DNA of 64,000 bases from Candidatus Woesearchaeota archaeon (GCA_964419925.1 CAYQPR010000002.1:2002-66001), one strand, 5' to 3'. Positions 7,174 through 47,879 are shown, counted from the stretch's first letter. Notes: a model not told the origin generated them from the sequence alone. Numbers and translations: made by a program.

Positions 7174-8466
7174 TTAAGGAACATATCTTAGCATCGTTCT
7201 AGGGTAAGGTATTGCATCCTTGATATTGTCTAAACCACAAATCCAAGATATAATTCTTTCAACACCCATTCCAAATCCACCATGAGGAACACTTCCATAT
7301 TTTCTTGTATCCAAATAAAATTCATAATTCTTTGGATTTTCTCCCTGCTCTTTTAATCTAGAAATTATTTTATCTTTATCGGGCTCTCTTTCACTTCCAC
7401 CTATAATCTCACCATAACCTTCAGGAGCAATAAAATCACAACCAAAAACAACTTTCGTATCTTTTGGATCTTCTTTCATATAAAATGCTTTAACAACTTT
7501 AGGATAATGTGTTACAATTATTGGAGTATCGTATAACTTACTTAATTCATCCTCTTCAATTGTCCTTAAATCTTTTCCCCAATCAATTTTGATTTTACAT
7601 TTTTCTTTTAATATTTTTAAAGCATCAGTATAAGTCATTCTTGGAAAAGGTTTTTTTAATATTGGTTCCAATTTCTTAACATCTCTTTCTAAAAGTTTCA
7701 ATTCTTCTTTATTATTTTCCAAAACTTCTTTAACAATATTTTTAATTAAATTTTCGCCATGATCTTGAATATCTTTAAAGGAAGCCCAAGCCTGTTCCAT
7801 TTCAGCATGCCAGTACTCCGTCAAATGTCTAGACGTCTTAGATTTTTCAGCTCTAAAACTTGGTGCGATGCAATACACTTTTTCTAAAGCAAAAATAGCT
7901 GGCTCAGCATACAACTGCCATGTTTGTGCCAAAAATAATTTTTTTCCAAAATAATCTACATTAAATAGCGTGCTTCCACCTTCACACTGAACACTTTGTA
8001 TTATGGGACTTTGAAATTCATAAAAACCTTCATTTCTAAAATAATCATGTATTGCTTTAAAAATAGTACTCCTTATCTTTAATATAGAGGTCATCTTTCT
8101 GCTTCTTAACCATAGATGTCTATTATCTAATAATAGTTCAGGACTTTGATCTTTATTTATTGGAAATATCTCTGCAAATTGAATAACATTTATTTTACTA
8201 ACCTGAATTTCATATCCTGTTGGAGCTCTTTTATCTTCCTTTATTTCTCCTTCAATTTCTAAAGAGCTTTCAATTAAAATTTTATTAGAATCTTCCCATT
8301 CTTTCTTTGTAACTTTATCTTGTTTAATTACACATTGAATAATATTTGTAGAATCTCTAACCACTAAAAAAATCATGTCTTTCTGTTTTCTTTCACGATG
8401 AACCCATCCGTGAATACTTACATTACCTTTTCCCTTTTCAATTGCTTCTTGTATTTGAATAAACAT
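7174..8466 (-). CDS. asnS: asparaginyl-tRNA synthetase (class IIb)
   Basis: N-terminal OB anticodon-binding domain (GWVHRER). Class II motifs FRAE...RHLTEYWHAE and GGSER are present. The HLTE(F/Y) region favours AsnRS over AspRS. Confidence 0.65.
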   Translation of the reverse strand: MFIQIQEAIEKGKGNVSIHGWVHRERKQKDMIFLVVRDSTNIIQCVIKQDKVTKKEWEDSNKILIESSLEIEGEIKEDKRAPTGYEIQVSKINVIQFAEIFPINKDQSPELLLDNRHLWLRSRKMTSILKIRSTIFKAIHDYFRNEGFYEFQSPIIQSVQCEGGSTLFNVDYFGKKLFLAQTWQLYAEPAIFALEKVYCIAPSFRAEKSKTSRHLTEYWHAEMEQAWASFKDIQDHGENLIKNIVKEVLENNKEELKLLERDVKKLEPILKKPFPRMTYTDALKILKEKCKIKIDWGKDLRTIEEDELSKLYDTPIIVTHYPKVVKAFYMKEDPKDTKVVFGCDFIAPEGYGEIIGGSEREPDKDKIISRLKEQGENPKNYEFYLDTRKYGSVPHGGFGMGVERIISWICGLDNIKDAIPYPRTMLRYVP

Positions 8467-9417: not shown

Positions 9418-10695
9418 TTATGGTGTTAACCTATCTCGATCCCTTGCAAACAAAACCGCTTCCCTAATATTATCTAACTTTAATAATGTCATAGTAAATC
9501 TTTCTAAACCAATTGACCATCCAGAATGCATCGGAGCTCCTGTTCTAAAGCTATCAACATAAAATTCAAAATTATCCGGATTTAATTTTTTATCTTTTAA
9601 TTGTTTTATTAAAATCTCGGGAATGTGAACGCGTTGTCCTCCAGAACTTATTTCAACTCCACCATACAAAGCATCAAATCCCTTACTCAACCTCTCTCTT
9701 TTATCTAAACTTTTTGGAAAAATATAGAATGGTTTTAATGTAGAAGGCCAAGAATGGGTAAATACAATCATATCCGGATACATTTCACATAATTTTCTTT
9801 CAGATTCAGGTGTAAAATCTTCTCCAATTTTTAAACCAACAAGTTTAATTGCTTCATCATAACTTAAGTATTTTGCTTTTGGAATTTTCAATTTTAAATT
9901 TAAATTTTCTAATTCATCTTTACATTTTTCAATTACATTTTTAACAATAAATGCAACACAATCTTCTAAATATTTCATAACTTTAAAATCATCTGCAAAG
10001 GCAACTTCAATATCCATTTGTCTTGATTCATTCAAGTGTCTTATTGTATTATGTTTCTCCGCTCTCCAAACGGGAGTTATTGTAAATACCCTTTCTAAAG
10101 AAATTGCACATAATTGTTTATATAATTGAGGACTTTGTGCTAGATAAGCTTTTTTCTCAAAATACTTAACTTCAAATAACTCAGTTCCACCCTCGGAAGC
10201 ACTTGCAATAATGCTTGGAGGTTGTATCTCAATAAAATTTAATTTTCTAAAAAATTCTCTAAAAGAACTTGAAATTTCGCTTTGAATTTTAAATATTGCC
10301 TTAACCTTTTTCTTCCTTAAATCTAAACTCCTATGTTCTAATCTCGTGCTTAAATCAGTAATGATATCTTTATCTTTTTCATAAACTTGTATTGGAAGAT
10401 TTTCAGCCTTATTCAATAACTCTAATTCATCAACACTGATTTCAAAATTATTAATTGTTAATTCAGAAGATGTTAATTTAGCTTCTTTTATTTTTCCCCT
10501 AATTGAAATAACACTTTCTAATGTTAATTTCTCATCAAAACCTTTAGCTTCATTTTTTATAACACATTGAACGATTCCAGTTATATCTCTTAAAAGAATA
10601 AACTTGGCTTTGGGTAATTCTCTAATATCATGAACCCAACCTTTCAATAAAACTTCCTTTTTATCTTTAAGTTCATTAACGTAGCTTCTTTCCAT
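9418..10695 (-). CDS. aspS: aspartyl-tRNA synthetase (archaeal type, class IIb)
   Basis: GWVHDIRE OB domain, then WRAEKHNTIRHLNE...DIEVAF and GGQR class II motifs. The HNTxRHLNE region is typical of archaeal AspRS. Confidence 0.7.
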   Translation of the reverse strand: MERSYVNELKDKKEVLLKGWVHDIRELPKAKFILLRDITGIVQCVIKNEAKGFDEKLTLESVISIRGKIKEAKLTSSELTINNFEISVDELELLNKAENLPIQVYEKDKDIITDLSTRLEHRSLDLRKKKVKAIFKIQSEISSSFREFFRKLNFIEIQPPSIIASASEGGTELFEVKYFEKKAYLAQSPQLYKQLCAISLERVFTITPVWRAEKHNTIRHLNESRQMDIEVAFADDFKVMKYLEDCVAFIVKNVIEKCKDELENLNLKLKIPKAKYLSYDEAIKLVGLKIGEDFTPESERKLCEMYPDMIVFTHSWPSTLKPFYIFPKSLDKRERLSKGFDALYGGVEISSGGQRVHIPEILIKQLKDKKLNPDNFEFYVDSFRTGAPMHSGWSIGLERFTMTLLKLDNIREAVLFARDRDRLTP

Positions 10696-15822: not shown

Positions 15823-17229
15823 CTATTTTTTATTTATTAATTCTATTAACTTCTTGCCATCAATTTTACCTTTATATTTTGACATTAACATCCCCATCAA
15901 GGCATTTACGCTTAGTTCTTTATTTTTAGATTTAAGTTCTTTAATTTCTTTTTCAATTTCATTTAAACTAACAGATTTATAATCTTCAAGATTAATTTTT
16001 TCATTTTTACTTAATTTAACAAAAATTTCATTAACAACATCTTTTGTTATTTTACCTTTATCCAATAAATCTAAAACATAATCTAAACGTTTATTATTAA
16101 AATTACTAACTAAAATACTTGCTAATAAACCAGAACTAATCTCATTATACTTTTTAGAATAATCATTAAAATCTATCTTACTATGGATCATTTCAGAAGC
16201 CAGTTCATTACTTAATCCATATCTTTCTTTTAATTTATTTATCTTATCTTCAATCAGTTCAGGGATTTTAACATTCTCCAATAATTCTTTACTAACCTCT
16301 ATAGTTGGAATATCCGTATCCGGGTACATCCTTGCACTTCCGGGCAAAGGTCTCAAAAATGAGGTTGTCCCGTTTTCATTCGCCTTTCTTACCTCTTCTT
16401 CAACTTTTTTATCTTTTTCAACTAAACTAAACTGCCTTTGAATTTCATAATCAATTATCTTAGGCATTGTTCTTAAATCCTGAAAACCTTTTATCTCAAC
16501 CCTTGATCCATCTAAAATACTTAAATTAACATCCTGTCTTATTGTTCCAATTCCCCTTAAAATATCAGAAAAACTTCTTAAGATCATTCCTAATTTTTCA
16601 GCAGTTTCCTTTGCACCATCAGGGGTTTTAATGTCTGGCTTAGTCATTATCTCAATTAAAGGAATTCCCTGCCTTGATAAAGAATAATAAGTTTTATTTT
16701 CTTCATTTTTCTCAATTTTACATGCATCTTCCTCTAAACATAGACTTGCAATCTTAACCTTTCCAAAAGAAGTTTCAATAAACGAATCTTCACTTTCATA
16801 ACCAACTAACATTGTTCTTTGAAAAGCGCTACAAGCACTCCCATCCGTAATTATCTTTCTCATAACATAAATTTCTTTAGGAATGTTTAATCTAAACAAT
16901 TTAGCTAAAGATAAAGCCGTAACTAGTGCATCTTGATTAACCTGATATGGTGGCTGTTCATCACAATCGACTAAACAATATTCTCCTTTATAACCGTGAT
17001 AAATAAAATCTTTATTTTTAGATTCTTCAAATTTAGCTGCAACATCAACTTTTCCAGTTTCACCTGAAGAAGCTCTTAATTTCCTTTTAAATTCGATATC
17101 CAATTCTTTTTCTTCAAATTTAGTAGAGCAGTTGCAGAATAACTTTTTATCTGAAAGTTGCTGATGAATCTCAAGTCCAATCTTCAAGTTTAAATCCTTA
17201 TAGTCAAACATTTTCAATATCCTCATCAA
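15823..17229 (-). CDS. gatE: Glu-tRNA(Gln) amidotransferase subunit E/B-family (GatE-like, short form). The likely start is the Met at 17211.
   Basis: N-terminus YKDLNLKIGLEIHQQL...KLFCNC is the GatB/E signature. It is paired with gatD on the same strand. Confidence 0.7.
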   Translation of the reverse strand: MMRILKMFDYKDLNLKIGLEIHQQLSDKKLFCNCSTKFEEKELDIEFKRKLRASSGETGKVDVAAKFEESKNKDFIYHGYKGEYCLVDCDEQPPYQVNQDALVTALSLAKLFRLNIPKEIYVMRKIITDGSACSAFQRTMLVGYESEDSFIETSFGKVKIASLCLEEDACKIEKNEENKTYYSLSRQGIPLIEIMTKPDIKTPDGAKETAEKLGMILRSFSDILRGIGTIRQDVNLSILDGSRVEIKGFQDLRTMPKIIDYEIQRQFSLVEKDKKVEEEVRKANENGTTSFLRPLPGSARMYPDTDIPTIEVSKELLENVKIPELIEDKINKLKERYGLSNELASEMIHSKIDFNDYSKKYNEISSGLLASILVSNFNNKRLDYVLDLLDKGKITKDVVNEIFVKLSKNEKINLEDYKSVSLNEIEKEIKELKSKNKELSVNALMGMLMSKYKGKIDGKKLIELINKK

Positions 17230-17710
17230 TAATTTTAACTATTTTAGTAATATTATTTACAAAAAGTTTTGCATTTTTTAATGAATCTTCAGCATATTCC
17301 TTATTTGCCTGCGAAATTGTTTGATAAGTAAATAAACCTCTTTTAAATTTCAAATCTTTAAAAATTTCAAGCAAATGATCTGCCCTTATAATCATCTTTT
17401 GATAAATTTCAAGAAGTTTCACATCTATGATTCTGGTCTTAACAAAATTATTATCAAATTCATCATAAGTCTTTTTATGAACTTCAGGAAATGTTGTTTT
17501 AATATCTTTAGTTAATAAAATTGCCTTTGCTGAGTAAAATATCGCATAATAAGAATGAGAAATAACTGCACTGTAAAAACTAATCTCTAAAGGTATTTTC
17601 AAAAATTCTTTTTTCTTGTTATCATTACTTATATCTCTAAGCGTTTCAGCGATTATTAATTCATTTTCAGATCGATCAAGAAAATTTTTTGTTGTTAAAT
17701 CCATTCTCAA
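17204..17710 (-). CDS. HEPN-domain protein (toxin of a HEPN/MNT pair)
   Basis: All-helical 168-aa protein with the ISHSYYAIFYSAKAILL helix typical of HEPN. It overlaps the MNT gene and the gatE start. Confidence 0.55.
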   Translation of the reverse strand: MRMDLTTKNFLDRSENELIIAETLRDISNDNKKKEFLKIPLEISFYSAVISHSYYAIFYSAKAILLTKDIKTTFPEVHKKTYDEFDNNFVKTRIIDVKLLEIYQKMIIRADHLLEIFKDLKFKRGLFTYQTISQANKEYAEDSLKNAKLFVNNITKIVKIIDEDIENV

Positions 17711-18305
17711 TAACCTCTTGCATTAATTTAATATAAATCTGTCCTCCAGTTAATATAATGAAGTTTCTTACTATCCCTTTACCATAATTAGCTTCATTAT
17801 TTAAAAGCATTTCCTTAAACTCAGAATATTTAAAAACATATAAATGTATTTGTGGAATATTCATTTCTGCCTTAAAGGATAGTTCAGCATAAACTCTTTT
17901 AGGTTCAAACAAATCATTGATAAGCACAACAACATCAAGATCAGATGTTTTTGTAAATTTTCCGTTTGCATAACTACCAGTTATAATAAAAACATAATCC
18001 TTATAAGAAATATTGCTCATAAACTCTTGTAAATCTCGATAAGGTAAACTATCCTTATGCCAACCATAATACTCTAAAACAAAACCTGCAAAAATTCTTG
18101 ATTTTACTATAAAATTTAATGAGTAAACCGAGAGATTACCTACTTTTTCTAATAGTAATATTTTTTCTTTTAATAAATTCTTAATTACCTTATCAACATA
18201 GCTTTTTGATTTCTTTTTTGAAGAATTTTTTAATTCTGTAAAAGTATATTTTTTCCAAGGTTCTTTTGCAAATAAATATAATAATTCTGAATCTTTTTTT
18301 AGCAT
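17676..18305 (-). CDS. minimal nucleotidyltransferase (MNT) with N-terminal winged-helix domain (antitoxin partner of HEPN)
   Basis: GSYANGKFTKTSDLDVVVL is the GS...DxD polymerase-beta-type nucleotidyltransferase motif. It overlaps the HEPN gene. Confidence 0.7.
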   Translation of the reverse strand: MLKKDSELLYLFAKEPWKKYTFTELKNSSKKKSKSYVDKVIKNLLKEKILLLEKVGNLSVYSLNFIVKSRIFAGFVLEYYGWHKDSLPYRDLQEFMSNISYKDYVFIITGSYANGKFTKTSDLDVVVLINDLFEPKRVYAELSFKAEMNIPQIHLYVFKYSEFKEMLLNNEANYGKGIVRNFIILTGGQIYIKLMQEVIENGFNNKKFS

Positions 18306-18309
18306 AGTA

Positions 18310-18351
18310 ATTCCCTATTTTTAGGATTACTATTCCCTATTTTTAGGGTTA
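18310..18351. promoter_or_regulatory. Tandem operator-like repeat: two 20-nt units (attccctatttttagg[a/g]tta), each holding the palindrome CCCTA-TTTT-TAGG(G). Unit spacing is 22 bp, and they sit between a TATA-like box (atataaatat, 18351..18360) and the MNT start codon.
   Basis: Read directly in the sequence. Unit 2 is a perfect palindrome. Confidence 0.6.
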
Positions 18352-18373
18352 TATAAATATTTCGATTCAAAAA

Positions 18374-19666
18374 CTAATCTAAAAACTCTTTTGTTAAATG
18401 ATCATTAATTTCGCCACGTAAATTTTTACCAATTAAACCTTTAACTTCTTTAGGATTATAATTTCCTAACAACCAAGCTAACTTAACAAAAGCAACTTCT
18501 GGTAACATATCTTCTCCAGAAATAATCCCAATTTCTTGTAAATCCCTCCCTTTAGAGTAAACATTCATGTTAACCCGACCAAATAAACATTGAGAAGTCA
18601 TCACCACAACCATACTTTTATTTAAATCTTGCAAAGCTTTCTTAATCTTAGCATGTTCCTTAGTTTCATTATCAATAACATCTCCAGGGGTATGACCCAA
18701 TCCGGTTCCTTCAATGATCAAACCCTTATAACCCTTGTAAGCTAAAAATTGATTAGCGGTCATATTAATCGTAATTTTAATCAAAGCAACTTTTTCTTCA
18801 AATTTATCTTTAATTACTAACTTTTCTCCCTTTCGTTTATAATCTTCCTTAATGAAATTTATATTTTTAGTTCTATAATCAACTTGTGCAATTACATTAT
18901 CATTAATTGGCTTAAAGGCATCTCTTCTAGAGGTATGCATCTTACGAGTTTTACATGCTGGAAAAATTGAACAGGTTTTATCATTTATTGAATCATGCAT
19001 ACATATTGCAACTCCAGAAAAATCAGTTTTAGTTATAAACAAAGAAGCACAAACTAAATTCATCGCAGCATCACTTGAACCCCTATCAGAACTTCTTTGA
19101 GATGCCACCAAGATTACAGGAACCGGACAAGATTCTAAAACAAAACTCAAAGCAGCACTTGCAACAGCTAAATTATCAGTTCCCATTCCAACAATTACGC
19201 CCTCAACCCCAGATTTAATTTCATTTTCAATCTCCTTAGCAAGAACACCAAAATGTTTAAATCTTAAATCATCACTCCACATTTTTCTAACAAGTTTACT
19301 TTTAAAGTTTGCAATCTCCTTAAGTTCAGGAAAAATAGATAAAAATTCTTCAGGAGTAAACTTTGAAATTACCCCTCCGGTCTCATAATCTACCTTAGAA
19401 GCTATCGTTCCACCGGTGTGTAAAATAGAAATGGTTTTTAATCCTTTTTTAAAATCAACTTTTTCTTGATTTTCTTTTTTTTCAGAAATTTTTTTTATTA
19501 AATTAATTTTTTTTATTTTATTTTTTTCAATTCCTAAATTGTATCCAGAATTTAATTTTAAAGTTAAAATTTCTTTATTTGTCGACGGCAAAATTGTTCC
19601 TTTCAAATTTTCTTTTTCAGAAAAAATTTCAACGTAATCACCGATTTTATAATTTTCTTTTTTCAT
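18374..19666 (-). CDS. gatD: Glu-tRNA(Gln) amidotransferase subunit D
   Basis: C-terminal L-asparaginase-like domain (HTGGTIAS, GMGTDNLA). The N-terminal small domain is typical of GatD. Confidence 0.8.
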   Translation of the reverse strand: MKKENYKIGDYVEIFSEKENLKGTILPSTNKEILTLKLNSGYNLGIEKNKIKKINLIKKISEKKENQEKVDFKKGLKTISILHTGGTIASKVDYETGGVISKFTPEEFLSIFPELKEIANFKSKLVRKMWSDDLRFKHFGVLAKEIENEIKSGVEGVIVGMGTDNLAVASAALSFVLESCPVPVILVASQRSSDRGSSDAAMNLVCASLFITKTDFSGVAICMHDSINDKTCSIFPACKTRKMHTSRRDAFKPINDNVIAQVDYRTKNINFIKEDYKRKGEKLVIKDKFEEKVALIKITINMTANQFLAYKGYKGLIIEGTGLGHTPGDVIDNETKEHAKIKKALQDLNKSMVVVMTSQCLFGRVNMNVYSKGRDLQEIGIISGEDMLPEVAFVKLAWLLGNYNPKEVKGLIGKNLRGEINDHLTKEFLD

Positions 19667-21787: not shown

Positions 21788-22150
21788 TTATTTTACAAAT
21801 TCTACATTCTTCATACTTTTGAATTCCTTATCTCCAGTTAAGAATTTCATTTCATTTTCTGTAGCAATAATATATCCCAAAGCATCAACATATGAAATAT
21901 TATTTTTCTTATTCTTTAATTTAAAATCTGAGGCTAAAAAAATCCATTCATCTTTTATTCTAATCAACAAAGAATAAAAAGTATAAAAAACTTCTTTAGC
22001 TTTATTTCCATCATTCTCTTTTAATATATTATAATATAGTTCATATAAATTAAGCAATGTTGTAAAAACCTCGTGATCAAGATATTTTTTATAACTTTCA
22101 TTGCCCTTAACAATCTCAATCAAAGCATAAGTATCAAGAAAGAATCTCAT
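21788..22150 (-). CDS. vapC: PIN-domain toxin VapC
   Basis: FFLDTYALIE (first catalytic Asp) ... VDALGYIIATENEMKFLTGDKEF. The start overlaps the vapB stop (ATGA). Confidence 0.75.
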   Translation of the reverse strand: MRFFLDTYALIEIVKGNESYKKYLDHEVFTTLLNLYELYYNILKENDGNKAKEVFYTFYSLLIRIKDEWIFLASDFKLKNKKNNISYVDALGYIIATENEMKFLTGDKEFKSMKNVEFVK

Positions 22151-22362
22151 TTAGTCCACTCCTTTCTTAATTCATCCTTTACATCTTGAGCGTTAATCTT
22201 CCATTTTTTTAAAAGCCCAAATGCATTTTTAACAAGAATCTTTTTTCTCAATTCAAACATCACTTCTTCACCAGGTTTTAAATTTTCTCTGACCATAATC
22301 TCTCGAGGAACCACTATTCCAAATGAATTTCCCCACCTTTTCAATTTAGTTCTGAATTCCAT
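22147..22362 (-). CDS. vapB: AbrB/SpoVT-type antitoxin VapB
   Basis: KRWGNSFGIVVPREI swapped-hairpin barrel motif. 71 aa, directly upstream of vapC. Confidence 0.75.
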   Translation of the reverse strand: MEFRTKLKRWGNSFGIVVPREIMVRENLKPGEEVMFELRKKILVKNAFGLLKKWKINAQDVKDELRKEWTK

Positions 22363-23905: not shown

Positions 23906-24943
23906 ATGAAGGTATTAAACAAAAACGAATTTAAAGAAAAGATCGATTTAGATCTTAAAGATAAAAAAATTCTAAAATTATTAAGTATAAATTCAAGATT
24001 TCCATTAACTAAAATCTGTAAATATATAAGGTTAACAAGAGATGCAGTAAATTATAGAATAAAGGGGTTGGAAGAGAAAAATATAATAACTGGATACAGA
24101 ACTTTAATTAATTTAAAAAAACTAGGCTATTCCTCTTATCATATTTTTATAGAATTACATCCAAATCGTGAAAAAGAAAAAGAGTTAATTGATTTTTTTA
24201 AAAAAAATGAAAATATAAATGCAATAATAAAATATTCTGGAAAATTAGACTATGAAATAGCCTTAGTTTGTAAAACATTTGAAGAATTTGATAACGTCTT
24301 TAATAAAATAATCAATAAATATGAAGTTAAAAACTATGAAATCCTAATAATATTAAATACAATAAAGAGTTCATCATTTCCAGAAAGTTTATTGAATGAA
24401 AAGATACCTATTGAAAATAAAAAAAATGACGGAAGTTTTTTTAAAAATTTTATCAATGCAAAAAACACAGATTTTAAACTAGATAAGGCCGATATAAAAA
24501 TTCTTAATCTAATTTCAAATGATGCAAAAATCTCTTTAACCGAATTAAGCAAAAATACAAGCTTGAGCTTGGATGTAATTTCTTATAGAATTAAGAAAAT
24601 GATAGAAAGTAAAATAATTCTCGAATTCCGTCCAGTAATAAATTACAATAATTTAGGTTTTTCAGTTTATACACTTTTATTAAGTTTACAAAATCTAAAC
24701 GATAAAAAAGAAATCGAACTTATTGAATTTTTTAAAAACAATAAGAATATTTTATGGGGTGTTAAAACAATAGGCAAATGGAACCTATTAATATATATTC
24801 TAACAAAAGACGAGCAAGAGTTTCATTCAACAATTTCAGAAATTAAAAATAAATTTTCAAGCATAATCAAAACATATGAAACACTATTAGCAGATGAGGA
24901 ATACAAATACACTTATTTCCCGGAAGTTTTAAGTAAAATCTAG
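23906..24943 (+). CDS. tandem-duplicated Lrp/AsnC-family transcriptional regulator (two HTH + RAM-like repeats in one chain)
   Basis: Repeat 1 is KKILKLLSINSRFPLTKICKYIRLTRDAVNYRIKGLEE. Repeat 2 is IKILNLISNDAKISLTELSKNTSLSLDVISYRIKKMIE. Confidence 0.6.
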   Translation: MKVLNKNEFKEKIDLDLKDKKILKLLSINSRFPLTKICKYIRLTRDAVNYRIKGLEEKNIITGYRTLINLKKLGYSSYHIFIELHPNREKEKELIDFFKKNENINAIIKYSGKLDYEIALVCKTFEEFDNVFNKIINKYEVKNYEILIILNTIKSSSFPESLLNEKIPIENKKNDGSFFKNFINAKNTDFKLDKADIKILNLISNDAKISLTELSKNTSLSLDVISYRIKKMIESKIILEFRPVINYNNLGFSVYTLLLSLQNLNDKKEIELIEFFKNNKNILWGVKTIGKWNLLIYILTKDEQEFHSTISEIKNKFSSIIKTYETLLADEEYKYTYFPEVLSKI

Positions 24944-25860
24944 TTTTTCTTCAAAACCTCAACAATTTTACAAGTCTGACAAATTTCTTGAGAACACGGT
25001 TCACCACAGGATTTACATTCTTTTAAAGATGTAATATTTTTATAATTTTCTTTTAATAAAGGTAATAATTCCAAAAAACTAGTTATAATACTATGTTTAG
25101 TACCAGGGTATTTTGATTCAAAACTATTCAAAAGATCTCTAACATCTCCACGATAAGCATCTGTGTTGTAAGGACATTCTTTAAAATCTGGAATTAATTT
25201 TTTTAAAAAAGCATAAGTAGCAACCTCTTTTTCGGTCATTAAATACAAAGGCTTTATTCTCCTAACAAATTTCTTATCGTTTACAATTCCAGTAATCGGT
25301 CCAAGTCTAGCCGAAGTTTCTAAATTCCTTCTAAAATAATTCATCATTATTGTCTGAGATTCATCATCTAGATTATGTCCAGTAGCTAATTTAGTGAATC
25401 CTAATTCTTTTGATTTTTTATTTAAAATATATCTTCTAAAAGGCCCGCACATTGAGCAAGCTTTCATTTTACTTTTTTTAAGAAAATTATCTAGAGTATT
25501 CCCAAATTCTTCTTTATATGAAAAGATACTTAATTTAATATTATTTTCTTTGCAGAATTTTTTAGCATTTTCTAAAGTCTCATCCCTATATCCTTTAATC
25601 CCTTCGTTTACAGCAATTGCTTCCAAAGTAAATCTTCTTGTTTTACTCTTTAAATCATTTAAAATATTTAAAACAGTTAAAGAATCTTTTCCACCAGAAA
25701 CGGCAACTCCAATTTTATCATTTTTATCAATTAGTTTATATTTTCTAATTAAATTCAAAACTTTTTTCTCAAAGTATTTAATAAAATGCTGCTTACATAG
25801 TTGGATATTCACATTTGTAAGTTTTATTACAGGATTATCTAAACAATTCTTGCACACCAT
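24940..25860 (-). CDS. ncsA: PP-loop ATPase of the NcsA/TtuA/TtcA tRNA-thiolation family
   Basis: SGGKDS PP-loop, N-terminal CxxC...C and C-terminal CKSCGEPCSQEICQTC zinc/Fe-S cysteines. Confidence 0.75.
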   Translation of the reverse strand: MVCKNCLDNPVIKLTNVNIQLCKQHFIKYFEKKVLNLIRKYKLIDKNDKIGVAVSGGKDSLTVLNILNDLKSKTRRFTLEAIAVNEGIKGYRDETLENAKKFCKENNIKLSIFSYKEEFGNTLDNFLKKSKMKACSMCGPFRRYILNKKSKELGFTKLATGHNLDDESQTIMMNYFRRNLETSARLGPITGIVNDKKFVRRIKPLYLMTEKEVATYAFLKKLIPDFKECPYNTDAYRGDVRDLLNSFESKYPGTKHSIITSFLELLPLLKENYKNITSLKECKSCGEPCSQEICQTCKIVEVLKKN

Positions 25861-25943: not shown

Positions 25944-27047
25944 ATGAGTGATAAAGTGTTAAATGAAGAACTCGTTCTTGAACATGCCTTTGAAATTAAG
26001 AAGGTTAAACACAATTATAGTCCTGAAGAAAAACTTATAGTAGATCGTGCAAATGCAATTTTAAGTTATAGAAATGGTATTGTTAGAAATTTAGAAGATT
26101 ATGTTGAATCATTACTAAAGACAAGGTTAAATGAAGTCGGTAATGAAAGAAACTGGCAACCCTCTGATTTTTTACCTGATTTTTCATTAGGAAATTGGAA
26201 ACAAGAAGTTGAAAGACTTCAAAAACAATCCAAAGGAATATCCGATGAATTAATGGTAGTATTGATTGGAAATTTAGTAACAGAAGAAGCACTTCCAACT
26301 TATCAGACATTTCTTAATAAATTTGATGGCATTAAAGATTTGACCGGAGCACAGAACACTGCTTGGGCTAAGTGGACAAAGGGTTGGACCGCTGAAGAAA
26401 ATAGACACGGAGATTTACTGCACTGTTATTCATTTTTATCCGGGCGTTTTAATATGAGAACAGTGTATGACACTATTCAACTTTTAATAATGAATGGTTT
26501 TGATGCCGGAGCCGGAGAAGATCCATTTAAAGTATTTGAATATACAAGTTTTCAGGAAAGAGCAACTAGAATTTCTCATACAAATACTGGTAAAATTGCA
26601 AAGCAACAAGGAGATGAATTATTATACAAGATATGTACTATGATTGCTAAAGATGAAACAAGACATGAAAGTTTTTATACTCTCTGTATGAAAAAAATTT
26701 TTGATATAGATCCAAATGGGGCAATGACCTCTTATGCTTGGATGATGAAAAAAAATATATCTATGCCTGCAAAATTAATAAGTGATAATAAGAATCCAAA
26801 TTTGTTTAAAGATTTTTCAGCCGCTGCCGAGCGTGTAGGAGTTTACACAGCAAGAGACTATGCGGAGATAATAAACCATCTAAACAATGAATGGGAAATA
26901 GCTGAAGTAAAGGTAACAACTATAGAAGCAAGTCAAGCTCAAGAATATTTATTAAATCTACCAGAAAGATACTTAAAACTTTCAGATAGAAAAAGAAGTT
27001 CCGAAAGAACATTTGATCCAAAATATTTTTCCTGGTTAAAAAATTAA
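25944..27047 (+). CDS. soluble acyl-ACP desaturase-family di-iron protein (DesA-like)
   Basis: The two di-iron motifs TAEENRHGD and AKDETRHE sit in a ferritin-like four-helix context. Local GC looks slightly above neighbours. Confidence 0.75.
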   Translation: MSDKVLNEELVLEHAFEIKKVKHNYSPEEKLIVDRANAILSYRNGIVRNLEDYVESLLKTRLNEVGNERNWQPSDFLPDFSLGNWKQEVERLQKQSKGISDELMVVLIGNLVTEEALPTYQTFLNKFDGIKDLTGAQNTAWAKWTKGWTAEENRHGDLLHCYSFLSGRFNMRTVYDTIQLLIMNGFDAGAGEDPFKVFEYTSFQERATRISHTNTGKIAKQQGDELLYKICTMIAKDETRHESFYTLCMKKIFDIDPNGAMTSYAWMMKKNISMPAKLISDNKNPNLFKDFSAAAERVGVYTARDYAEIINHLNNEWEIAEVKVTTIEASQAQEYLLNLPERYLKLSDRKRSSERTFDPKYFSWLKN

Positions 27048-27049
27048 AA

Positions 27050-27244
27050 TTAACCACCAGAAATAACACTTAATAATTTTAGTTCATCGCTATCTTTTAA
27101 TTCAGTGTTTTCTAAAATAAGTTCATTGTTTCTTGAAAATAAAACAGTTTCAGAATTAATTTTTAATTTACTTAAAACTTCTTTTGGGTTCTTAGCTTTT
27201 AAATTTATGATTCTATCTTCTTTTTCAATAAAAATTTTAACCAT
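27050..27244 (-). CDS. ThiS/MoaD-like ubiquitin-fold sulfur-carrier protein ending in Gly-Gly. The start is the internal Met MVKIF; the track ORF 27050..27328 is N-extended.
   Basis: C-terminal ...LSVISGG-stop. About 64 aa of beta-grasp size. Its ATG overlaps the stop of the upstream ORF (TATGGTTAA). Confidence 0.65.
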   Translation of the reverse strand: MVKIFIEKEDRIINLKAKNPKEVLSKLKINSETVLFSRNNELILENTELKDSDELKLLSVISGG

Positions 27245-27572
27245 AATAAATAACCTCTGATTCAATTGGAGTCTTAGAAGAATCTTGTAAAAATAATTTA
27301 TTTTCTGGAATTTCATTTTTAAGATCAAGTTCTAAAAAACAATAAGAGGGGATTTTTAATTTATTGTTTTCAAAAGAACAACCAACCGAGTTAATTCTTA
27401 AATAATAAAAAGTATGATTAATATGGTTTTTTATGAATTCTAAAGAAATGGGGGTTTTTCTATATAAAGTGTATTCGTCTCCGTTAAATCCAAAAGGTTC
27501 GCCTTCAATATTAACTACATCACCTAAATTAAGTAAATTATTTACAGATTTATTTTTATTTAATTCGTCCAT
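27237..27572 (-). CDS. hypothetical protein, translationally coupled to the Ubl gene
   Basis: 111-aa ORF with no motif. It sits between the ThiI-like and Ubl genes. Confidence 0.45.
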   Translation of the reverse strand: MDELNKNKSVNNLLNLGDVVNIEGEPFGFNGDEYTLYRKTPISLEFIKNHINHTFYYLRINSVGCSFENNKLKIPSYCFLELDLKNEIPENKLFLQDSSKTPIESEVIYYG

Positions 27573-27596
27573 AAAAACTCATTGAACTAAAATGAT

Positions 27597-28205
27597 TTAT
27601 AAAACTTTCTTTAAGTTTTTTAAAGAACTTTCAACCAGTTTATTTACGTTAATCTTATTTTCTTCCTTTAATAAAATTTCTTCATTAGATCTAGTTGCAG
27701 GATGTTTTGGTCCAAGAATATTACACATCTCTGGTCCTTTAGAAGTTTCAAAAGTATCTATTTTTCTGGCAATTTTAATAATTTCATCTTTATCATAACA
27801 CAACAAAGGACTTATGATTGGGATTTCAACAGCCTTTCTAATACTAACTAAATTTGATAAGGTTTGACTTGAAACTTGTCCGATATTACATCCGTCTAAT
27901 AAAAAATCACACTTCAATTTTTCAGCCAATTTCTCTGCTACTTTGTACATTAATCTTCTAGAAAGGACATAATAATATTTATTATCGCACTTTTTTGTAA
28001 TTTCAGAATGTTCTTCAGAATGGTTAATAACATAAAATTCTTTTATTTTTAACTTTTTACAAATTTCTAAAGATTTCTTTTCAGGAGTATTATCTGTAAA
28101 TGGTTCTAAAGAAAAATGCAATGCAACTATTTCCATCTTAGGCTTCATTAAGTAAATTGCAATGGGTGAATCAAATCCGCCAGATAACAATGCTAAAGCT
28201 TTCAT
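27597..28205 (-). CDS. ThiI-type PP-loop ATPase domain protein (no THUMP domain)
   Basis: LALLSGGFDSPIA PP-loop at the N-terminus. 202 aa. Confidence 0.65.
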   Translation of the reverse strand: MKALALLSGGFDSPIAIYLMKPKMEIVALHFSLEPFTDNTPEKKSLEICKKLKIKEFYVINHSEEHSEITKKCDNKYYYVLSRRLMYKVAEKLAEKLKCDFLLDGCNIGQVSSQTLSNLVSIRKAVEIPIISPLLCYDKDEIIKIARKIDTFETSKGPEMCNILGPKHPATRSNEEILLKEENKINVNKLVESSLKNLKKVL

Positions 28206-28558
28206 TTCACTTCAAAGAAATTTAGTTTACCTTTTAAAGGAATTGGTTTAATCCTATGATTATTTTTTAGTCTAAAACCATATCTTACGAAAATTTTTGC
28301 AAAATGTTTATTATAGTCTTTATCAAATTCTTCTTTAGATTTATATTCCTTAACATCTACTAATTCAGCTTTTCCAATCAAACAACCAGTAACTAAATCT
28401 TTCAAATTAATTTCATCACAATACTCTAAATCAGAATTCTTAGAAGAATGTATAAAAAATTCCCCTCTAAAATTAGTTTTCCATTTTCTAGTTTCAATTG
28501 TTTTCTTTCCTGAAACAATCAATTCTGCCCAAGGCTGTTTTAGAGATAAAGCTTTCAT
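28202..28558 (-). CDS. ASCH/PUA-like domain protein
   Basis: LSLKQPWAELIVSGKKTIETR is the characteristic ASCH N-terminal beta-strand motif. Confidence 0.6.
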   Translation of the reverse strand: MKALSLKQPWAELIVSGKKTIETRKWKTNFRGEFFIHSSKNSDLEYCDEINLKDLVTGCLIGKAELVDVKEYKSKEEFDKDYNKHFAKIFVRYGFRLKNNHRIKPIPLKGKLNFFEVK

Positions 28559-29505
28559 TTTCCAGCTTCATAAATTTCATCAGCAATTTCCATAACTTTA
28601 TTCTCATCTCTTAAAGTCTTAAAAATAATTTCACCTTCTTTATTAATAATAACTTGCTCATTATCAACTTCAATCAAAATTGTATTTCCTGCATCTCTTA
28701 ATTCACCAAATTTTTTCTTAATCTTCTCAAGATTCAACTTTTTATGAGTCTTAACAGTTAATGTAGTTTTAGTTCTGCACAATTCAAGTTTAAATTTTTT
28801 CTCAACCATTTTACCGTTACAAACTTCGCAATCTGTATTTTTATTAACTTTTATTTTTTCAAATAAATTCTTATCTAAATTTATCCTTATTAAACTTTCT
28901 TCATAGTCTTTATTCAACAAGATCTTAAAAGCCTCACTAACTTGCAAACTTGAAATTAAAGTAGTAATTGTATTCAAAACTCCTATGTCTTCACATCTGT
29001 CAAATTCTTTTATGTTTCTGTAAATACAGTTAAAACATGCTTTTCCAGGCATAACATTAAAAATTAATCCATGATTTTGAATAGCTGCAGCATGAACCCA
29101 AGGGATCTTATTTTTTGAACAAAAATCATTTATCAAAAACCTTACTTCTAAATTATCGGTACAATCTAAGACTAAGTCGGATTTAATTAAATTAATATTT
29201 TCTTGATTTAGTTTAACATTATACCTTTTAATCTTAATCTTAGAATTAACTTTTTTTAAATAATCGCAAGCAACATCAGATTTAAACAACCCAATATTCC
29301 CTTCAGTGTAAATATTTTGTCTTTGCAAATTGCTTAATTCAACTTTATCTTTATCTACTAAAATTAAATTTACACCAGATCTTGTTAATAAATTACTAGA
29401 GTTACTTCCTAAAGCTCCTAATCCAACTACACAAACGGTTTTTCGATTAAGTAATTCTTGATTCTCTTTTTCAATCAAAATCTCCTGTCTTGAATATCTC
29501 ATCAT
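28555..29505 (-). CDS. E1-like ThiF/MoeB/UbaA-family adenylyltransferase with zinc CxxC pairs and an extra roughly 70-aa C-terminal region
   Basis: RYSRQ...VCVVGLGALGS...LILVDKDKVELSNLQRQ Rossmann/adenylation motif, plus CFNC and CEVC. Confidence 0.8.
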   Translation of the reverse strand: MMRYSRQEILIEKENQELLNRKTVCVVGLGALGSNSSNLLTRSGVNLILVDKDKVELSNLQRQNIYTEGNIGLFKSDVACDYLKKVNSKIKIKRYNVKLNQENINLIKSDLVLDCTDNLEVRFLINDFCSKNKIPWVHAAAIQNHGLIFNVMPGKACFNCIYRNIKEFDRCEDIGVLNTITTLISSLQVSEAFKILLNKDYEESLIRINLDKNLFEKIKVNKNTDCEVCNGKMVEKKFKLELCRTKTTLTVKTHKKLNLEKIKKKFGELRDAGNTILIEVDNEQVIINKEGEIIFKTLRDENKVMEIADEIYEAGK

Positions 29506-29553: not shown

Positions 29554-31440
29554 ATGAGTTTTAAAGACCTAATTAAAGTAATTAAGAAATATAATCCTGA
29601 ATCAAACATTGAGCTAATAATGAAAGCTTACAGTTTTGCTTCAAAAAAACATCTTAAACAAATTAGAGAATCAGGACATCCTTACATTACCCATCTTGTT
29701 GGAGCTGCTGGAATCTTAGCCAACTTAAAAACAGATGACGAAACAATTGCAGCTTGCTTATTGCACGATACCTTAGAAGATACGAATACAGCCGAAGAAG
29801 AATTAAAAGAAAATTTTGGAGAGGATATTCTAAATCTAATAAAAGGAGTCACAAAAATTAGTAAATTAGTTCTTCCAGATTTTAAAGAAAGACAAGTAGA
29901 GAGTATAAGAAAAATGTTAATTGCAAGCACAAAAGATATTCGAGTTATTTTAATAAAATTAGCCGATAGATTAAACAACATGTATTCTCTTAAATATTTT
30001 CGTGAAGAAAAACAAAAAAGAATAGCAAAAGAAACATTAGAAATTTATGCGCCTTTAGCTTATAGGTTAGGTTTGTTTAATATAAAATGGCAGTTAGAGG
30101 ATTTATCTTTTAGATATTTAGAACCTAAAATTTATCAAGAAATAAAATCAAAAGTTGTTAAAACAAGAAATGAAAGGGAATCAGAGATTAAAAAGATTAA
30201 ATCAATAATAGAAAGAGAGTTAGCAAAACGCAATATAAATGCACAAGTATTTGGAAGAGCAAAAAGTTTCTACAGTATTTACAAAAAAATAACTGAAAGA
30301 AATAAAACAATAGAAGGTATGTATGATTTAATTGCATTAAGGATATTGGTAGAAAAAAAACAACAATGTTATGAAGTTTTAGGAATAATTCATAATTTGT
30401 TTAAACCTGTAGAAGGGAAGATTCAAGATTATATTGCAAACCCAAAACCAAACATGTACCAAAGCTTACATACAATTATTCTTTACAATGAAGATCAAGT
30501 AGAAATCCAAATATTAACAAAAGATATGCATTTGATAAATGAAGAAGGAATTGCGGCACATTGGAGATATAAAGATAAAAAATCTATAAATGATCCTGAA
30601 TTTGAGAAAAAGTTAGGATGGATTAAAGAAGTAATTAACCTAAAATCAAATATGGGAGAAGATTTTCTTGAAAGATTAAAGATTGATTTATTTTTAGACC
30701 ATATCTTTGTTTTTACTCCAAAAAATGATATTGTTGAGCTTCCAAAAGGAGCGACATTACTTGATTTTGCCTATGCCGTACATAGTGATTTAGGAAATTC
30801 ATGTATAGGTGGAAAAGTAAATGATAAATTTGTAAATTTAAAGCACGAACTAAAAAATACTGACCAAGTTGAGATATTAGTTTCAAAAAATCAAAAACCG
30901 AGCAGAGAATGGTTAAAATTTGTTATTTCTCAAAGAACAAAGGAAAAAATTGCACACTATTTAAGAATGCAAAATGAAATTCCAATATCAAATCTAAGAA
31001 AGATGATTAATGAAAAAAATAGTTTAATAAAAAGCGAAACAAAGTCAACTTTTATTAAGATTTCCGAATGTTGTGACCCAATTCCAAATGATCCGATTAT
31101 TGGATTAAGCACAAAAAATAACAAAATTACAGTGCATAAAACAAATTGTAGCAAACTAAATACATTTAGCTTAAAAAAAGTAAAAGTATTTTGGAATGAT
31201 GAAATTGGGTTAACCGTAAATATCAAAGTTATAGCTTCAGATAGATTAGGGTTATTTGCAGACGTTTTAAAAAATATATCTTCATTATATCTAAACATTG
31301 AAAAAGCAAGTGCAAAAACAATCAATAAAGAATTAGGAGAATGCAACATTAAAATTAAAGTAAATTCTTTAGAAGATATAAAAAAAATTGTTGATCAAAT
31401 AAAAAAAATAAATGATGTTAGAAAAGTTAGTTTGAGTTAA
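29554..31440 (+). CDS. long RelA/SpoT homolog (HD hydrolase + (p)ppGpp synthetase + TGS + ACT)
   Basis: HD motif HPYITHLVGAAGILA...LLHDTLEDT. Synthetase motif RAKSFYSIYKKI...YDLIALRILV. TGS IFVFTPKNDIVELPKGATLLDFAYAVHSDLG. C-terminal ACT-like region. Confidence 0.85.
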   Translation: MSFKDLIKVIKKYNPESNIELIMKAYSFASKKHLKQIRESGHPYITHLVGAAGILANLKTDDETIAACLLHDTLEDTNTAEEELKENFGEDILNLIKGVTKISKLVLPDFKERQVESIRKMLIASTKDIRVILIKLADRLNNMYSLKYFREEKQKRIAKETLEIYAPLAYRLGLFNIKWQLEDLSFRYLEPKIYQEIKSKVVKTRNERESEIKKIKSIIERELAKRNINAQVFGRAKSFYSIYKKITERNKTIEGMYDLIALRILVEKKQQCYEVLGIIHNLFKPVEGKIQDYIANPKPNMYQSLHTIILYNEDQVEIQILTKDMHLINEEGIAAHWRYKDKKSINDPEFEKKLGWIKEVINLKSNMGEDFLERLKIDLFLDHIFVFTPKNDIVELPKGATLLDFAYAVHSDLGNSCIGGKVNDKFVNLKHELKNTDQVEILVSKNQKPSREWLKFVISQRTKEKIAHYLRMQNEIPISNLRKMINEKNSLIKSETKSTFIKISECCDPIPNDPIIGLSTKNNKITVHKTNCSKLNTFSLKKVKVFWNDEIGLTVNIKVIASDRLGLFADVLKNISSLYLNIEKASAKTINKELGECNIKIKVNSLEDIKKIVDQIKKINDVRKVSLS

Positions 31441-46842: not shown

Positions 46843-47661
46843 TTATAGGGAATTAATATCAAGAATACCTTTTAATAACTTTCGTCTTTGTTCTAAGGTG
46901 GTGTGTATTGGGCAGAATCCAAACCTCTTCCATACAAAATATTTGCTGTAATGTTTTGGGTTGCTAAACCCAATAATGGTAATCCATTTTTCCAAATTTT
47001 TCTTGCCAACAATCACAACACGATAATGTTTAAACACCCTATTATTTCGCTTACGTTTTCCTTTCTCTAAATAACTATGTATTCCCAACTTGTTTAATAA
47101 CACCTTTAACTGTTTTGTTAATTTCTCTGAGGCAAATTGACCTCCAATTAATGGGTAATGATGTTTCTTAAATTTGGTATCTTTTCTTATTTTAAACACC
47201 AAATAAAAATCCGTATCAGCAATTCCCCTAATTAATGCAGAAATAATTTTATTATCCTTAGTTTCAAAAAAATATTTGGGTATTTTATAAGAATTATCCA
47301 ATTTATTTCCAGGTGTATATTTCATATTTTTAACGAAAAAATTAATTATAGATTTAGAGGTTACACAGATTTTTATTCCATTTGTTCCAGAAATTTTACG
47401 AATATATGGCCTTACGTTAAAAAGATTGTAAAATAAATCTGATATTATAATGTTATGATAATCTAAATCTTCTTGAGCATGTCCGTATACAAATAACTCA
47501 TATTTTCTTCTGTTAGATGGTTTTTCTTTTAAATGGATGCACCCGTCTCCAATCATTAAACCAAATAATTCTGCCAAATCAGAAGTTAATTTATTAGGCA
47601 AATGAACATCTCTTTTTATATCTGAATTACTGAATGAAATTTTTGAGTTATCAAATATCAT
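46843..47661 (-). CDS. double-motif LAGLIDADG homing endonuclease, free-standing
   Basis: Motif 1 LAELFGLMIGDGCI and motif 2 ISALIRGIADTDFY. 272 aa. A TATA-like TTTATAA lies about 30 nt upstream. The ORF ends exactly where the tRNA gene begins. Confidence 0.75.
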   Translation of the reverse strand: MIFDNSKISFSNSDIKRDVHLPNKLTSDLAELFGLMIGDGCIHLKEKPSNRRKYELFVYGHAQEDLDYHNIIISDLFYNLFNVRPYIRKISGTNGIKICVTSKSIINFFVKNMKYTPGNKLDNSYKIPKYFFETKDNKIISALIRGIADTDFYLVFKIRKDTKFKKHHYPLIGGQFASEKLTKQLKVLLNKLGIHSYLEKGKRKRNNRVFKHYRVVIVGKKNLEKWITIIGFSNPKHYSKYFVWKRFGFCPIHTTLEQRRKLLKGILDINSL

Positions 47662-47760
47662 TTTTATATCAAAAATCTCTTCTTACTTATAAAGTTGACC
47701 CGCGAGGTTGTCACTTGGACAGTTGGGAAAAAATGTATATTTTAAAGAATATAAATAAAA

Positions 47761-47835
47761 CGGGCCTGATGGGATTTGAACCCACGATCTTCAGCTTAGA
47801 AGGCTGACATCCAATCCAGGCTAGACGACAGGCCC
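47761..47835 (-). tRNA. tRNA-Arg (anticodon TCT), no intron
   Basis: Acceptor GGGCCTG/CAGGCCC. Anticodon arm TCAGC-CTTCTAA-GCTGA. T-arm GTGGG-TTCAAAT-CCCAT. Discriminator G. Confidence 0.75.
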
Positions 47836-47879
47836 ATAATAAAAACCACCTCTATGAAGATATTTAAACCTTTTCAAAA

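Follow-up and report, generated by a model that had tools for sequence, protein, structure and literature searches.

We analysed a 64,000-nucleotide (nt) stretch of DNA from a Candidatus Woesearchaeota archaeon (GCA_964419925.1 CAYQPR010000002.1:2002-66001; hereafter the window), in which five co-directional minus-strand genes at positions 27050–29505 form one operon of a Woesearchaeota-like DPANN archaeon. They encode an E1-like activating enzyme with a TATA-binding-protein-like (TBP-like) tail, an ASCH protein, a ThiI-type PP-loop enzyme that lacks a THUMP domain, a 111-amino-acid (aa) protein termed U111, and a ubiquitin-like protein (Ubl) ending in Gly-Gly (GG). We judge, with a probability of roughly 60%, that the operon serves tRNA thiolation and elaborates, in a lineage-specific way, a conserved four-part set consisting of the E1 with its TBP-like tail, the THUMP-less PP-loop enzyme, the GG-ended Ubl and a nearby NcsA-type thiolase, with ASCH and U111 as add-ons. 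This locus and its relatives bring together in one operon a ThiI without THUMP, a TBP-like domain in which one cysteine is invariant, an E1, a GG carrier and a TtuA/NcsA enzyme, which makes the hypothesis testable by reconstitution.

Gene calls and junctions were taken from an open reading frame (ORF) listing and from direct reading of the minus strand of the window. In order of transcription, the operon contains the genes for the E1 (28555–29505, minus strand, 316 aa; Pfam ThiF 9.7e-57 over residues 4–228), the ASCH protein (28202–28558, minus strand, 118 aa; PF04266 1.2e-10), the ThiI-type PP-loop enzyme (27597–28205, minus strand, 202 aa; PF02568 6e-50), U111 (27237–27572, minus strand, 111 aa; no family at significance in Pfam or NCBIfam) and the ThiS-like Ubl (27050–27244, minus strand, 64 aa). 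The E1/ASCH and ASCH/PP-loop junctions are both ATGA, each a 4-nt overlap, a 24-nt gap separates the PP-loop gene from U111, and the U111 stop and Ubl start overlap by 8 nt (ATGGTTAA). The ORF listing and domain searches thus bear out the five genes and the identities that an earlier note on this DNA had given them, and reading the sequence confirms its statement that the Ubl start is coupled to U111 by an overlap. The NcsA/TtuA-type thiolase that it had placed nearby is also there (24940–25860, minus strand, 306 aa; NCBIfam NcsA 1.6e-72; PDB TtuA PH0300 1.3e-58). The window has a G+C content of ~27% and carries archaeal housekeeping genes, among them those for the proteasome alpha subunit, SBDS, exosome Rrp4/41/42, GatD/E, Trm56, Nre and ribosomal proteins L1 and L10.

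The recurrence of four of these genes across related loci is what defines the core of the system. Six-frame ORFs of more than 170 fetched loci (given here by L numbers) were searched with the window proteins and with iterated hidden Markov models (HMMs), and the gene tables of close relatives were read. The E1, PP-loop, Ubl and NcsA genes recur in L004, L085, L087, L089, L092, L174 and L176, and part of this four-gene set is found in L005, L006, L009 and L175. In L089 (PP-loop identity to the window 63%), E1, PP-loop, a 102-aa Cys-rich ORF, Ubl and NcsA are all co-directional. The order is E1, HAD, PP-loop and Ubl in L174 and L176 (75–80%), E1, HAD, PP-loop, a 76-aa ORF and Ubl in L085 (80%), and E1, Fic on the opposite strand, an 81-aa ORF, HAD, ASCH, PP-loop and Ubl in L087 (77%). 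L175 (74%) has a free TBP-like gene followed by ASCH, PP-loop, an opposite-strand gene, Ubl and NcsA; L004 (57%) has E1, a GNAT-like ORF, a free TBP-like gene, PP-loop, two opposite-strand lipoprotein-like ORFs and Ubl; L006 (53%) has E1, three small ORFs, one of them DUF59-like, PP-loop and Ubl; and in L009 (48%) PP-loop, Ubl and NcsA are contiguous.

Depending on the locus, the slot between E1 and PP-loop therefore holds ASCH, HAD, GNAT, a DUF59-like ORF, Fic or nothing, and the slot between PP-loop and Ubl holds U111, a 76-aa ORF, a 102-aa Cys-rich ORF or nothing. Two of the occupants of the first slot were recognised by eye from sequence, a 162-aa GNAT-like acetyltransferase (L004, 5269–5757, plus strand) and a 95-aa DUF59/SufT-like protein (L006, 2001–2288, plus strand). 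Because the intervening genes vary, we read the five-gene string of the window as one form of a four-gene core whose junctions readily take up insertions. The idea that the cluster is a Ubl/E1 sulfur-relay module tied to PP-loop thiolases holds up, given the domain identities and the recurrent four-gene set; the further idea that ASCH and U111 are dedicated accessories that define a five-part system is not supported, as relatives fill both slots otherwise or leave them empty. This deflates the original five-component claim and makes ASCH and U111 lineage-specific passengers or add-ons.

In its full form, that claim describes a self-contained five-part sulfur-relay or conjugation system in which ASCH replaces THUMP and U111 acts as a dedicated adaptor, E2-like factor or deconjugase substitute, and we consider it unlikely. 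The tight start/stop overlaps do imply co-translation, ASCH lies directly upstream of the PP-loop gene with a 4-nt overlap in three genomes (window, L087 and L175), its fold is PUA-like, with some members binding tRNA, and the same 8-nt overlap with Ubl is present in all three known copies of U111. Against this, ASCH was seen, among the loci examined, only in the window, L087/L088 and L175, and is absent from L085, L089, L174, L176, L004 and L006 and from every stand-alone ThiI locus farther removed. U111, for its part, has only three members, with its slot empty or otherwise filled in relatives, and between the window and L003 its nonsynonymous divergence (dN) is 0.19, compared with 0.03 for the PP-loop protein, or about six times faster.

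The ASCH protein carries the GxKxxExR octapeptide in the sequence SGKKTIETR, with G17, K19, E22 and R24 placing it in the GKER subgroup, and the PDB entries closest to it are the TRIP4 ASCH domain (2.4e-08) and TTHA0113 of T. thermophilus. According to a 2026 preprint, all 19 of the 19 ASCH proteins tested removed N4-acetylcytidine (ac4C) from tRNA, and the Lys and Glu were essential in GKER-type members (bioRxiv 10.64898/2026.02.27.708502). These reports of catalytic deacetylases speak against a five-part relay with ASCH as a THUMP substitute, and the earlier view of ASCH as a mere RNA binder gives way to that of a reported amidohydrolase. Judged from its sequence, the window protein is probably an enzyme of this ac4C-removing type whose gene entered the operon in a single subclade; that it serves as a tRNA-docking subunit is possible, though not supported. 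It shares the ASCH fold and the GKER octapeptide, including the essential Lys and Glu, with the amidohydrolases E. coli YqfB, TTHA0113, human EOLA1 and TRIP4, and differs from them in lying in a thiolation operon, a position undescribed in the papers searched. The protein also matches the PHROG family phrog_3193, of unknown function (1.3e-35, profile positions 85–207 of 269), so that this ASCH subtype is also present in viruses of bacteria or archaea in fused or extended form, a further point against a dedicated place in a five-part system.

A word-indexed protein search with U111 returned only itself and P0002 (68% identity), and when 1.84 billion cluster representatives were scanned exhaustively with HMMER a single member, P0123, was added, giving a family of three in ~15 billion proteins. 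Both P0002 and P0123 lie on Hainich groundwater contigs; in each case a ThiS-like gene of 64 aa comes next and shares the same 8 nt with the U111 homologue. Two cysteines, C65 and C78, are conserved, the pairwise ratio of nonsynonymous to synonymous substitution rates (dN/dS) is 0.25–0.30, and indels come in whole codons; for these last two reasons U111 is a real gene and not a spurious N-terminal extension of Ubl, the three sequences and their shared overlap pointing the same way. Its AlphaFold2 (AF2) model reached a mean predicted local distance difference test score (pLDDT) of 37 at an alignment depth of 2. With three sequences to search from, few enough for remote homology to go unseen, U111 had no significant match among Pfam, NCBIfam, PDB profiles or PHROG, and hhalign comparisons with alignments of the TBP-like, THUMP, Ubl, ASCH, PP-loop, E1 and NcsA families gave probabilities below 2%; nothing in these results links U111 to E2, JAMM or any other fold. 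The ORFs in the same slot of L085 (76 aa) and L089 (102 aa) have no visible resemblance to U111 or to each other, match no Pfam family and fall outside the matches of the exhaustive U111 profile scan. U111 is a fast-evolving, lineage-restricted orphan, and the comparative data argue against it as a general component of the system.

The PP-loop enzyme starts at its PP-loop domain, with no ferredoxin-like domain at its N-terminus (NFLD) and no THUMP domain, and matches only positions 174–373 of the full-length ThiI model TIGR00342; its best NCBIfam fit of the stand-alone kind is PRK08349, an uncharacterised subfamily (2.1e-45). Alignments to the structures 4kr6 and 2c5s, with conservation read over 121 homologues, place the SGGFDS motif at residues 8–13 and pair R84, G105, Q110 and Q114 with R264, G286, Q291 and Q295 of T. 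maritima ThiI. The catalytic cysteine and the active-site loop are kept as well: C161, the counterpart of T. maritima Cys344, occurs in every one of the 121 family members compared, and the conserved K167 aligns with Lys350, the active-site-loop lysine at the tRNA bulge. No rhodanese domain and no CXXC motif are present in the protein, and the only other partly conserved cysteines are C73 (90%), C99 (77%) and C136 (54%). An iron-sulfur TtuI of the CXXC+C type was considered and ruled out, the CXXC being absent.

The THUMP-less ThiI family to which this enzyme belongs is archaeal and large, with 1156 matches, the best 120 of which are all 185–224 aa long, and its nearest named relatives come from Woesearchaeota and other DPANN genomes of groundwater metagenomes. 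In the metagenome scan, the matches listed were mostly bacterial full-length ThiI, with about six useful archaeal loci. A separate THUMP subunit was also sought near the PP-loop gene; there is none in the window, and one was found only in L015. There, a 307-aa protein (2860–3783, minus strand) has the ThiI ferredoxin-like and THUMP domains with only a trace of the PP-loop domain, recalling P. horikoshii PH1313. Some 2 kb away are a stand-alone ThiI PP-loop gene and a free TBP-like gene, an arrangement that may be a split ThiI.

The E1 is divided into an adenylation core of ThiF/MoeB/UbaA type (residues 1–237 of 316; 28795–29505, minus strand) and a TBP-like domain (residues 238–316; 28558–28794, minus strand) with Cys243 in an LCRT motif. 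The core has the nucleotide loop GLGALGS, CxxC pairs at C157/C160 and C226/C229, and C171 in alignment with MoeB Cys187 (1jw9, ...TCVEAGV) and ThiF Cys184 (1zud, ...NCRTAGV). NCBIfam ThiF, MoeB and UbaA models match it at 1e-43 to 1e-52, each under its equivalog cut-off, and no specific orthologue name is therefore justified. The two CxxC pairs and the C-terminal extension are as first described, and the length of the extension is corrected from about 70 to 79 aa.

The nature of this extension emerged from short ORFs beside stand-alone PP-loop genes at several loci, which match only the last ~80 residues of the E1, one of them reaching the Pfam TBP gathering score. A profile search with the E1 tail found 451 archaeal proteins, mostly of ~94 aa. 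Structure prediction of residues 238–316 with AF2, using an alignment with 49 homologous sequences (pLDDT 86), answered the question raised about the extension with a TBP-like domain and supports a TBP half-repeat alpha/beta fold, in which a curved beta-sheet is predicted to pack against two helices. Invariant in the family are one cysteine (C243 of the E1) and one glycine, the cysteine lying in a P-C-[RK]-T consensus; among 120 free TBP-like homologues, PC[RKS][TSN] is found in 119, and the motif cysteine is the sole cysteine in 96. The free homologues also keep basic positions around the cysteine and on the beta-strands, which is no more than suggestive of nucleic-acid binding by these forms. 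Makarova and Koonin's idea that such proteins are GG-ended Ubl analogues was tried and rejected for this family, 0 of the 120 ending in GG.

The Ubl ends in LLSVISGG, with the ...SVISGG terminus kept in the nine orthologous copies read, and scores above the gathering threshold of PF02597 (4.2e-07) and 9.4e-05 against NCBIfam ThiS; by these features it qualifies as a predicted small beta-grasp (ubiquitin-fold) sulfur carrier. Orthologues of 64 aa were found in L084, L085, L087, L089, L174, L175 and L176. A 92-aa TTG-start ORF was rejected as the Ubl gene, as every homologue examined is 64 aa long with an ATG start. The SGGKDS, CSMCG and ECPY motifs of the NcsA/TtuA-type enzyme align with P. horikoshii TtuA, including the cluster-ligand motifs, and the terminal CxxC pairs are present. 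Its NCBIfam scores, 1.6e-72 to NcsA and 1.8e-66 to Pyrococcus TtuA, miss both equivalog cut-offs (NcsA 500, TtuA 450), and on the choice between tRNA positions U34 and U54 as target NCBIfam favours NcsA and the PDB search TtuA.

Ubl directly adjoins NcsA in L009, L089, L092 and L175. The gap between the two genes holds a radical-SAM gene in L085 and L087 and a 3-ketoacyl-acyl carrier protein (ACP) synthase III gene (KAS III; ACP_syn_III) in L174 and L176, and is empty in L089 and L175. In the window it is occupied by an acyl-ACP desaturase on the plus strand (25944–27047, PF03405 2.1e-121), which ends 2 nt short of the Ubl stop; one would not expect genes of fatty-acid type in an archaeon.

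From these parts we propose the following route. The E1 would adenylate the C-terminal glycine of Ubl, as is established for ThiF, MoeB, UbaA and TtuC, and the acyl-adenylate would be converted to a thiocarboxylate, with Cys243 of the TBP-like domain as a candidate persulfide relay; it is placed where the MoeZ, Uba4 and MOCS3 fusions have their rhodanese cysteine. The Ubl thiocarboxylate would then feed the [4Fe-4S] NcsA/TtuA enzyme for 2-thiouridine synthesis, a transfer established for TtuA/TtuB. It would probably also feed the ThiI-type enzyme, which would adenylate O4 of uridine, the intermediate being resolved by Cys161; this adenylation and cysteine chemistry is established for ThiI, and we infer the substrate and sulfur donor here. 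Because the PP-loop enzyme has neither THUMP nor rhodanese domain, the TBP-like domain would most likely supply RNA docking, a second cysteine, or both.

Several observations weigh against tRNA thiolation by this route. An NFLD-THUMP HMM built from 121 ThiI N-termini has no match in the 64-kb window, which encodes no other proven tRNA-binding module either. In the window's clade, the E1-fused TBP-like domain has lost several of the basic residues kept by the free forms, which weakens the RNA-docking idea at this locus, and about half of the stand-alone PP-loop loci have no TBP-like gene nearby at E<1e-4. No ThiI-type enzyme is known from experiment to be fed by a Ubl thiocarboxylate. Bacillus ThiF and MoeB probably have a TBP-like C-terminus as well. 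An E1 core with a TBP-like C-terminus is common to most bacterial homologues (PMC2948915) and the ThiF/MoeB-TBP architecture is also known from bacteria (PMC3597702); with bacterial ThiF/MoeB homologues sharing it, the TBP-like domain cannot be specific to tRNA work. Finally, the neighbourhoods of related loci are rich in genes for cytidylate kinase, thymidylate kinase, NT5C, HAD and NUDIX proteins, so that the PP-loop enzyme may act on a nucleotide.

Such a substrate is the basis of an alternative that we regard as doubtful, in which the PP-loop enzyme acts on a free nucleotide, nucleoside or small molecule, in modified-nucleotide salvage or thionucleotide synthesis together with ASCH, as ac4C deacetylase, and the HAD phosphatase of relatives, and E1 and Ubl are its sulfur source. 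DPANN archaea are thought to depend on salvage, no RNA-docking domain is found on the enzyme or elsewhere in the window, six of the seven closest relatives have HAD and/or ASCH in the upstream slot, and the wealth of nucleotide kinases, nucleotidases and NUDIX genes around these loci would fit. However, the active-site loop with the tRNA-bulge lysine (K167, equivalent to Lys350) is conserved, and the recurrent partners are a tRNA thiolase and a TBP-like domain, a fold that binds nucleic acids in TBP, RNase HIII and DNA glycosylases. We also know of no ThiI-family member that acts on free nucleotides.

It is improbable, in our view, that E1 and Ubl serve mainly in protein conjugation of the SAMPylation or urmylation type, with the PP-loop enzymes as targets or partners. 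The GG end of Ubl and the retention of the E1 cysteine aligned with MoeB Cys187 are compatible with it, and according to work cited in PMC2948915 SAMP2 and UbaA of H. volcanii act in tRNA thiolation as well as in the conjugation of proteins, NcsA included. Yet no JAMM/MPN, E2-like or E3-like gene was found in the Pfam-scanned ORFs of the window (the scans covered most ORFs of 150 aa or more), and the partners that are conserved, two in number, are PP-loop thiolases. The two functions, conjugation and sulfur transfer, do not exclude each other.

Least probable is a rearranged thiamine (ThiF/ThiS/ThiI) or molybdopterin (MoeB/MoaD) operon. Although the best NCBIfam names are ThiF/MoeB, ThiS and ThiI, the NCBIfam matches of the E1, Ubl and PP-loop proteins all lie under the equivalog cut-offs. 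ThiG, ThiH, ThiC, ThiE, Thi4, MoaA, MoaC, MoaE and MoeA are absent from the Pfam-scanned ORFs of the window (most of those of 150 aa or more) and from the related loci, and Rfam gives no thiamine pyrophosphate (TPP) riboswitch in the window; with neither such genes nor a riboswitch, this origin, which the earlier note had named as what would overturn its reading, is disfavoured. That archaeal ThiS genes are unlinked to thiamine genes (PMC2948915) also counts against it.

Returning to tRNA thiolation, the relation between the TBP-like domain and the THUMP-less ThiI enzyme extends beyond the window. In a set of 26 distinct loci with a stand-alone PP-loop gene, about 13 have a TBP-like domain, free or as an E1 tail, at a distance of 2.5 kb or less. 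Conversely, three independently sampled free TBP-like genes on long contigs, with Iainarchaeum and Thermoplasmata metagenome-assembled genomes among them, all lie directly downstream of a stand-alone ThiI gene, two of the three with a 4-nt overlap. The L175 locus has no E1 core but retains, upstream of ASCH and PP-loop, a free TBP-like gene of 84 aa that closely resembles the E1 tail of the window. From L175 and the linkage downstream of ThiI it follows that the association of the TBP-like domain with the PP-loop enzyme is no looser than that with the E1.

We therefore put forward, tentatively and at less than even odds, that a third class of ThiI, found across archaea and having neither THUMP nor rhodanese domain, has its missing partner in the TBP-like PC[RK]T domain, which would dock RNA, carry a persulfide or do both, coupling 4-thiouridine (s4U) synthesis to the E1/Ubl thiocarboxylate. 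If true, this would provide a new s4U route and a function for the free single-TBP-domain proteins of this family and for the MoeB/ThiF-TBP architecture, both of which have been without one since 2010–2013. Full-text literature searches gave no paper linking TBP-like domains with ThiI.

The individual elements have precedents. In the TtuA/TtuB/TtuC system of Thermus thermophilus and the NcsA/SAMP2/UbaA system of Haloferax volcanii, the path runs from an E1 via the thiocarboxylate of a GG carrier to a [4Fe-4S] PP-loop tRNA 2-thiolase, and the window has all three parts. With canonical ThiI/TtuI of E. coli, T. maritima and M. maripaludis, the window enzyme shares the PP-loop SGGxDS, the ATP residues and the Cys344 equivalent, but it has no NFLD, THUMP, rhodanese or CXXC+C, and its gene lies inside an E1/Ubl operon. 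All TtuI enzymes are said to have NFLD, THUMP and PP-loop domains, and those with neither rhodanese domain (RHD) nor CXXC+C to need more investigation (He et al. 2022, PMC9825150). By these classes the window enzyme is "neither RHD nor CXXC+C", and further without NFLD and THUMP; the mechanism of enzymes with neither feature is acknowledged to be open (PMC9825150, PMC9957541).

A THUMP-less ThiI has been predicted before, in a 4-thiouridylation pathway with NFACT-R (DUF814) and TusA (Burroughs & Aravind 2014, PMC4075521). There, too, a ThiI PP-loop enzyme minus THUMP and rhodanese was predicted to work with another RNA-binding domain and a small cysteine carrier; that system is bacterial, keeps CxxC, has NFACT-R fused and uses TusA, whereas the window has a TBP-like partner and an E1/Ubl route. 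The E1-rhodanese fusions MoeZ, Uba4 and MOCS3 resemble the window E1 in joining an E1 core to a C-terminal single-Cys domain and in Ubl thiocarboxylation for tRNA thiolation, but the tail here has the predicted TBP fold in place of rhodanese, and the persulfide role of Cys243 is a matter of inference only.

Makarova and Koonin (2010, PMC2948915) described gene neighbourhoods that pair E1 with ThiI and ThiS with a PP-loop enzyme, as well as E1 proteins whose C-terminus is TBP-like, and predicted a part in tRNA thiolation; Brindefalk et al. (2013, PMC3597702) described the ThiF/MoeB-TBP architecture and monopartite TBP proteins, of unknown function. The core gene combination is thus not undescribed, as had been supposed, since its core neighbourhoods and the E1-TBP architecture are already in these two papers. 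The MoeB/ThiF-TBP and monopartite TBP proteins reported there are of the same architecture and kind as the E1 tail and its ~94-aa free relatives, the Thermococcales members being likened by description. These papers left function open, or proposed a Ubl-like role for GG-ended halobacterial forms, and what single TBP-domain proteins and the TBP-like tail of ThiF/MoeB enzymes do is an acknowledged open question (PMC3597702). Neither the invariant cysteine of PC[RK]T nor the linkage to a ThiI without THUMP is reported there, and the family studied here differs from the halobacterial forms in having no GG-ended member among 120.

Divergently from the E1 gene and 48 bp away lies the gene for a full-length RelA/SpoT homologue (RSH; 29554–31440, plus strand, 628 aa) with HD, synthetase, TGS and ACT domains. 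Few RSH enzymes of the long type are known from archaea. The same divergent RelA/SpoT-E1 pair is found in L085, L087, L174 and L176, and in L175 the RelA/SpoT gene is split in two.

Elsewhere in the window, two paralogous class II aminoacyl-tRNA synthetases, presumably of AspRS/AsnRS type, are encoded ~1 kb apart (7174–8466 and 9418–10695, both minus strand), each with tRNA-synt_2 and an anticodon-binding OB fold at ~1e-76, and alongside them are the GatD/GatE genes at 15823–19666. Two toxin-antitoxin-like pairs are present, one of HEPN and minimal nucleotidyltransferase proteins (17204–18305, minus strand) and one of MazE-like and PIN proteins (21788–22362, minus strand; from the gene table of an identical contig). 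A free-standing LAGLIDADG ORF (46843–47661, minus strand) lies directly beside tRNA-Arg(TCT) (47760–47836), the only tRNA gene of the window.

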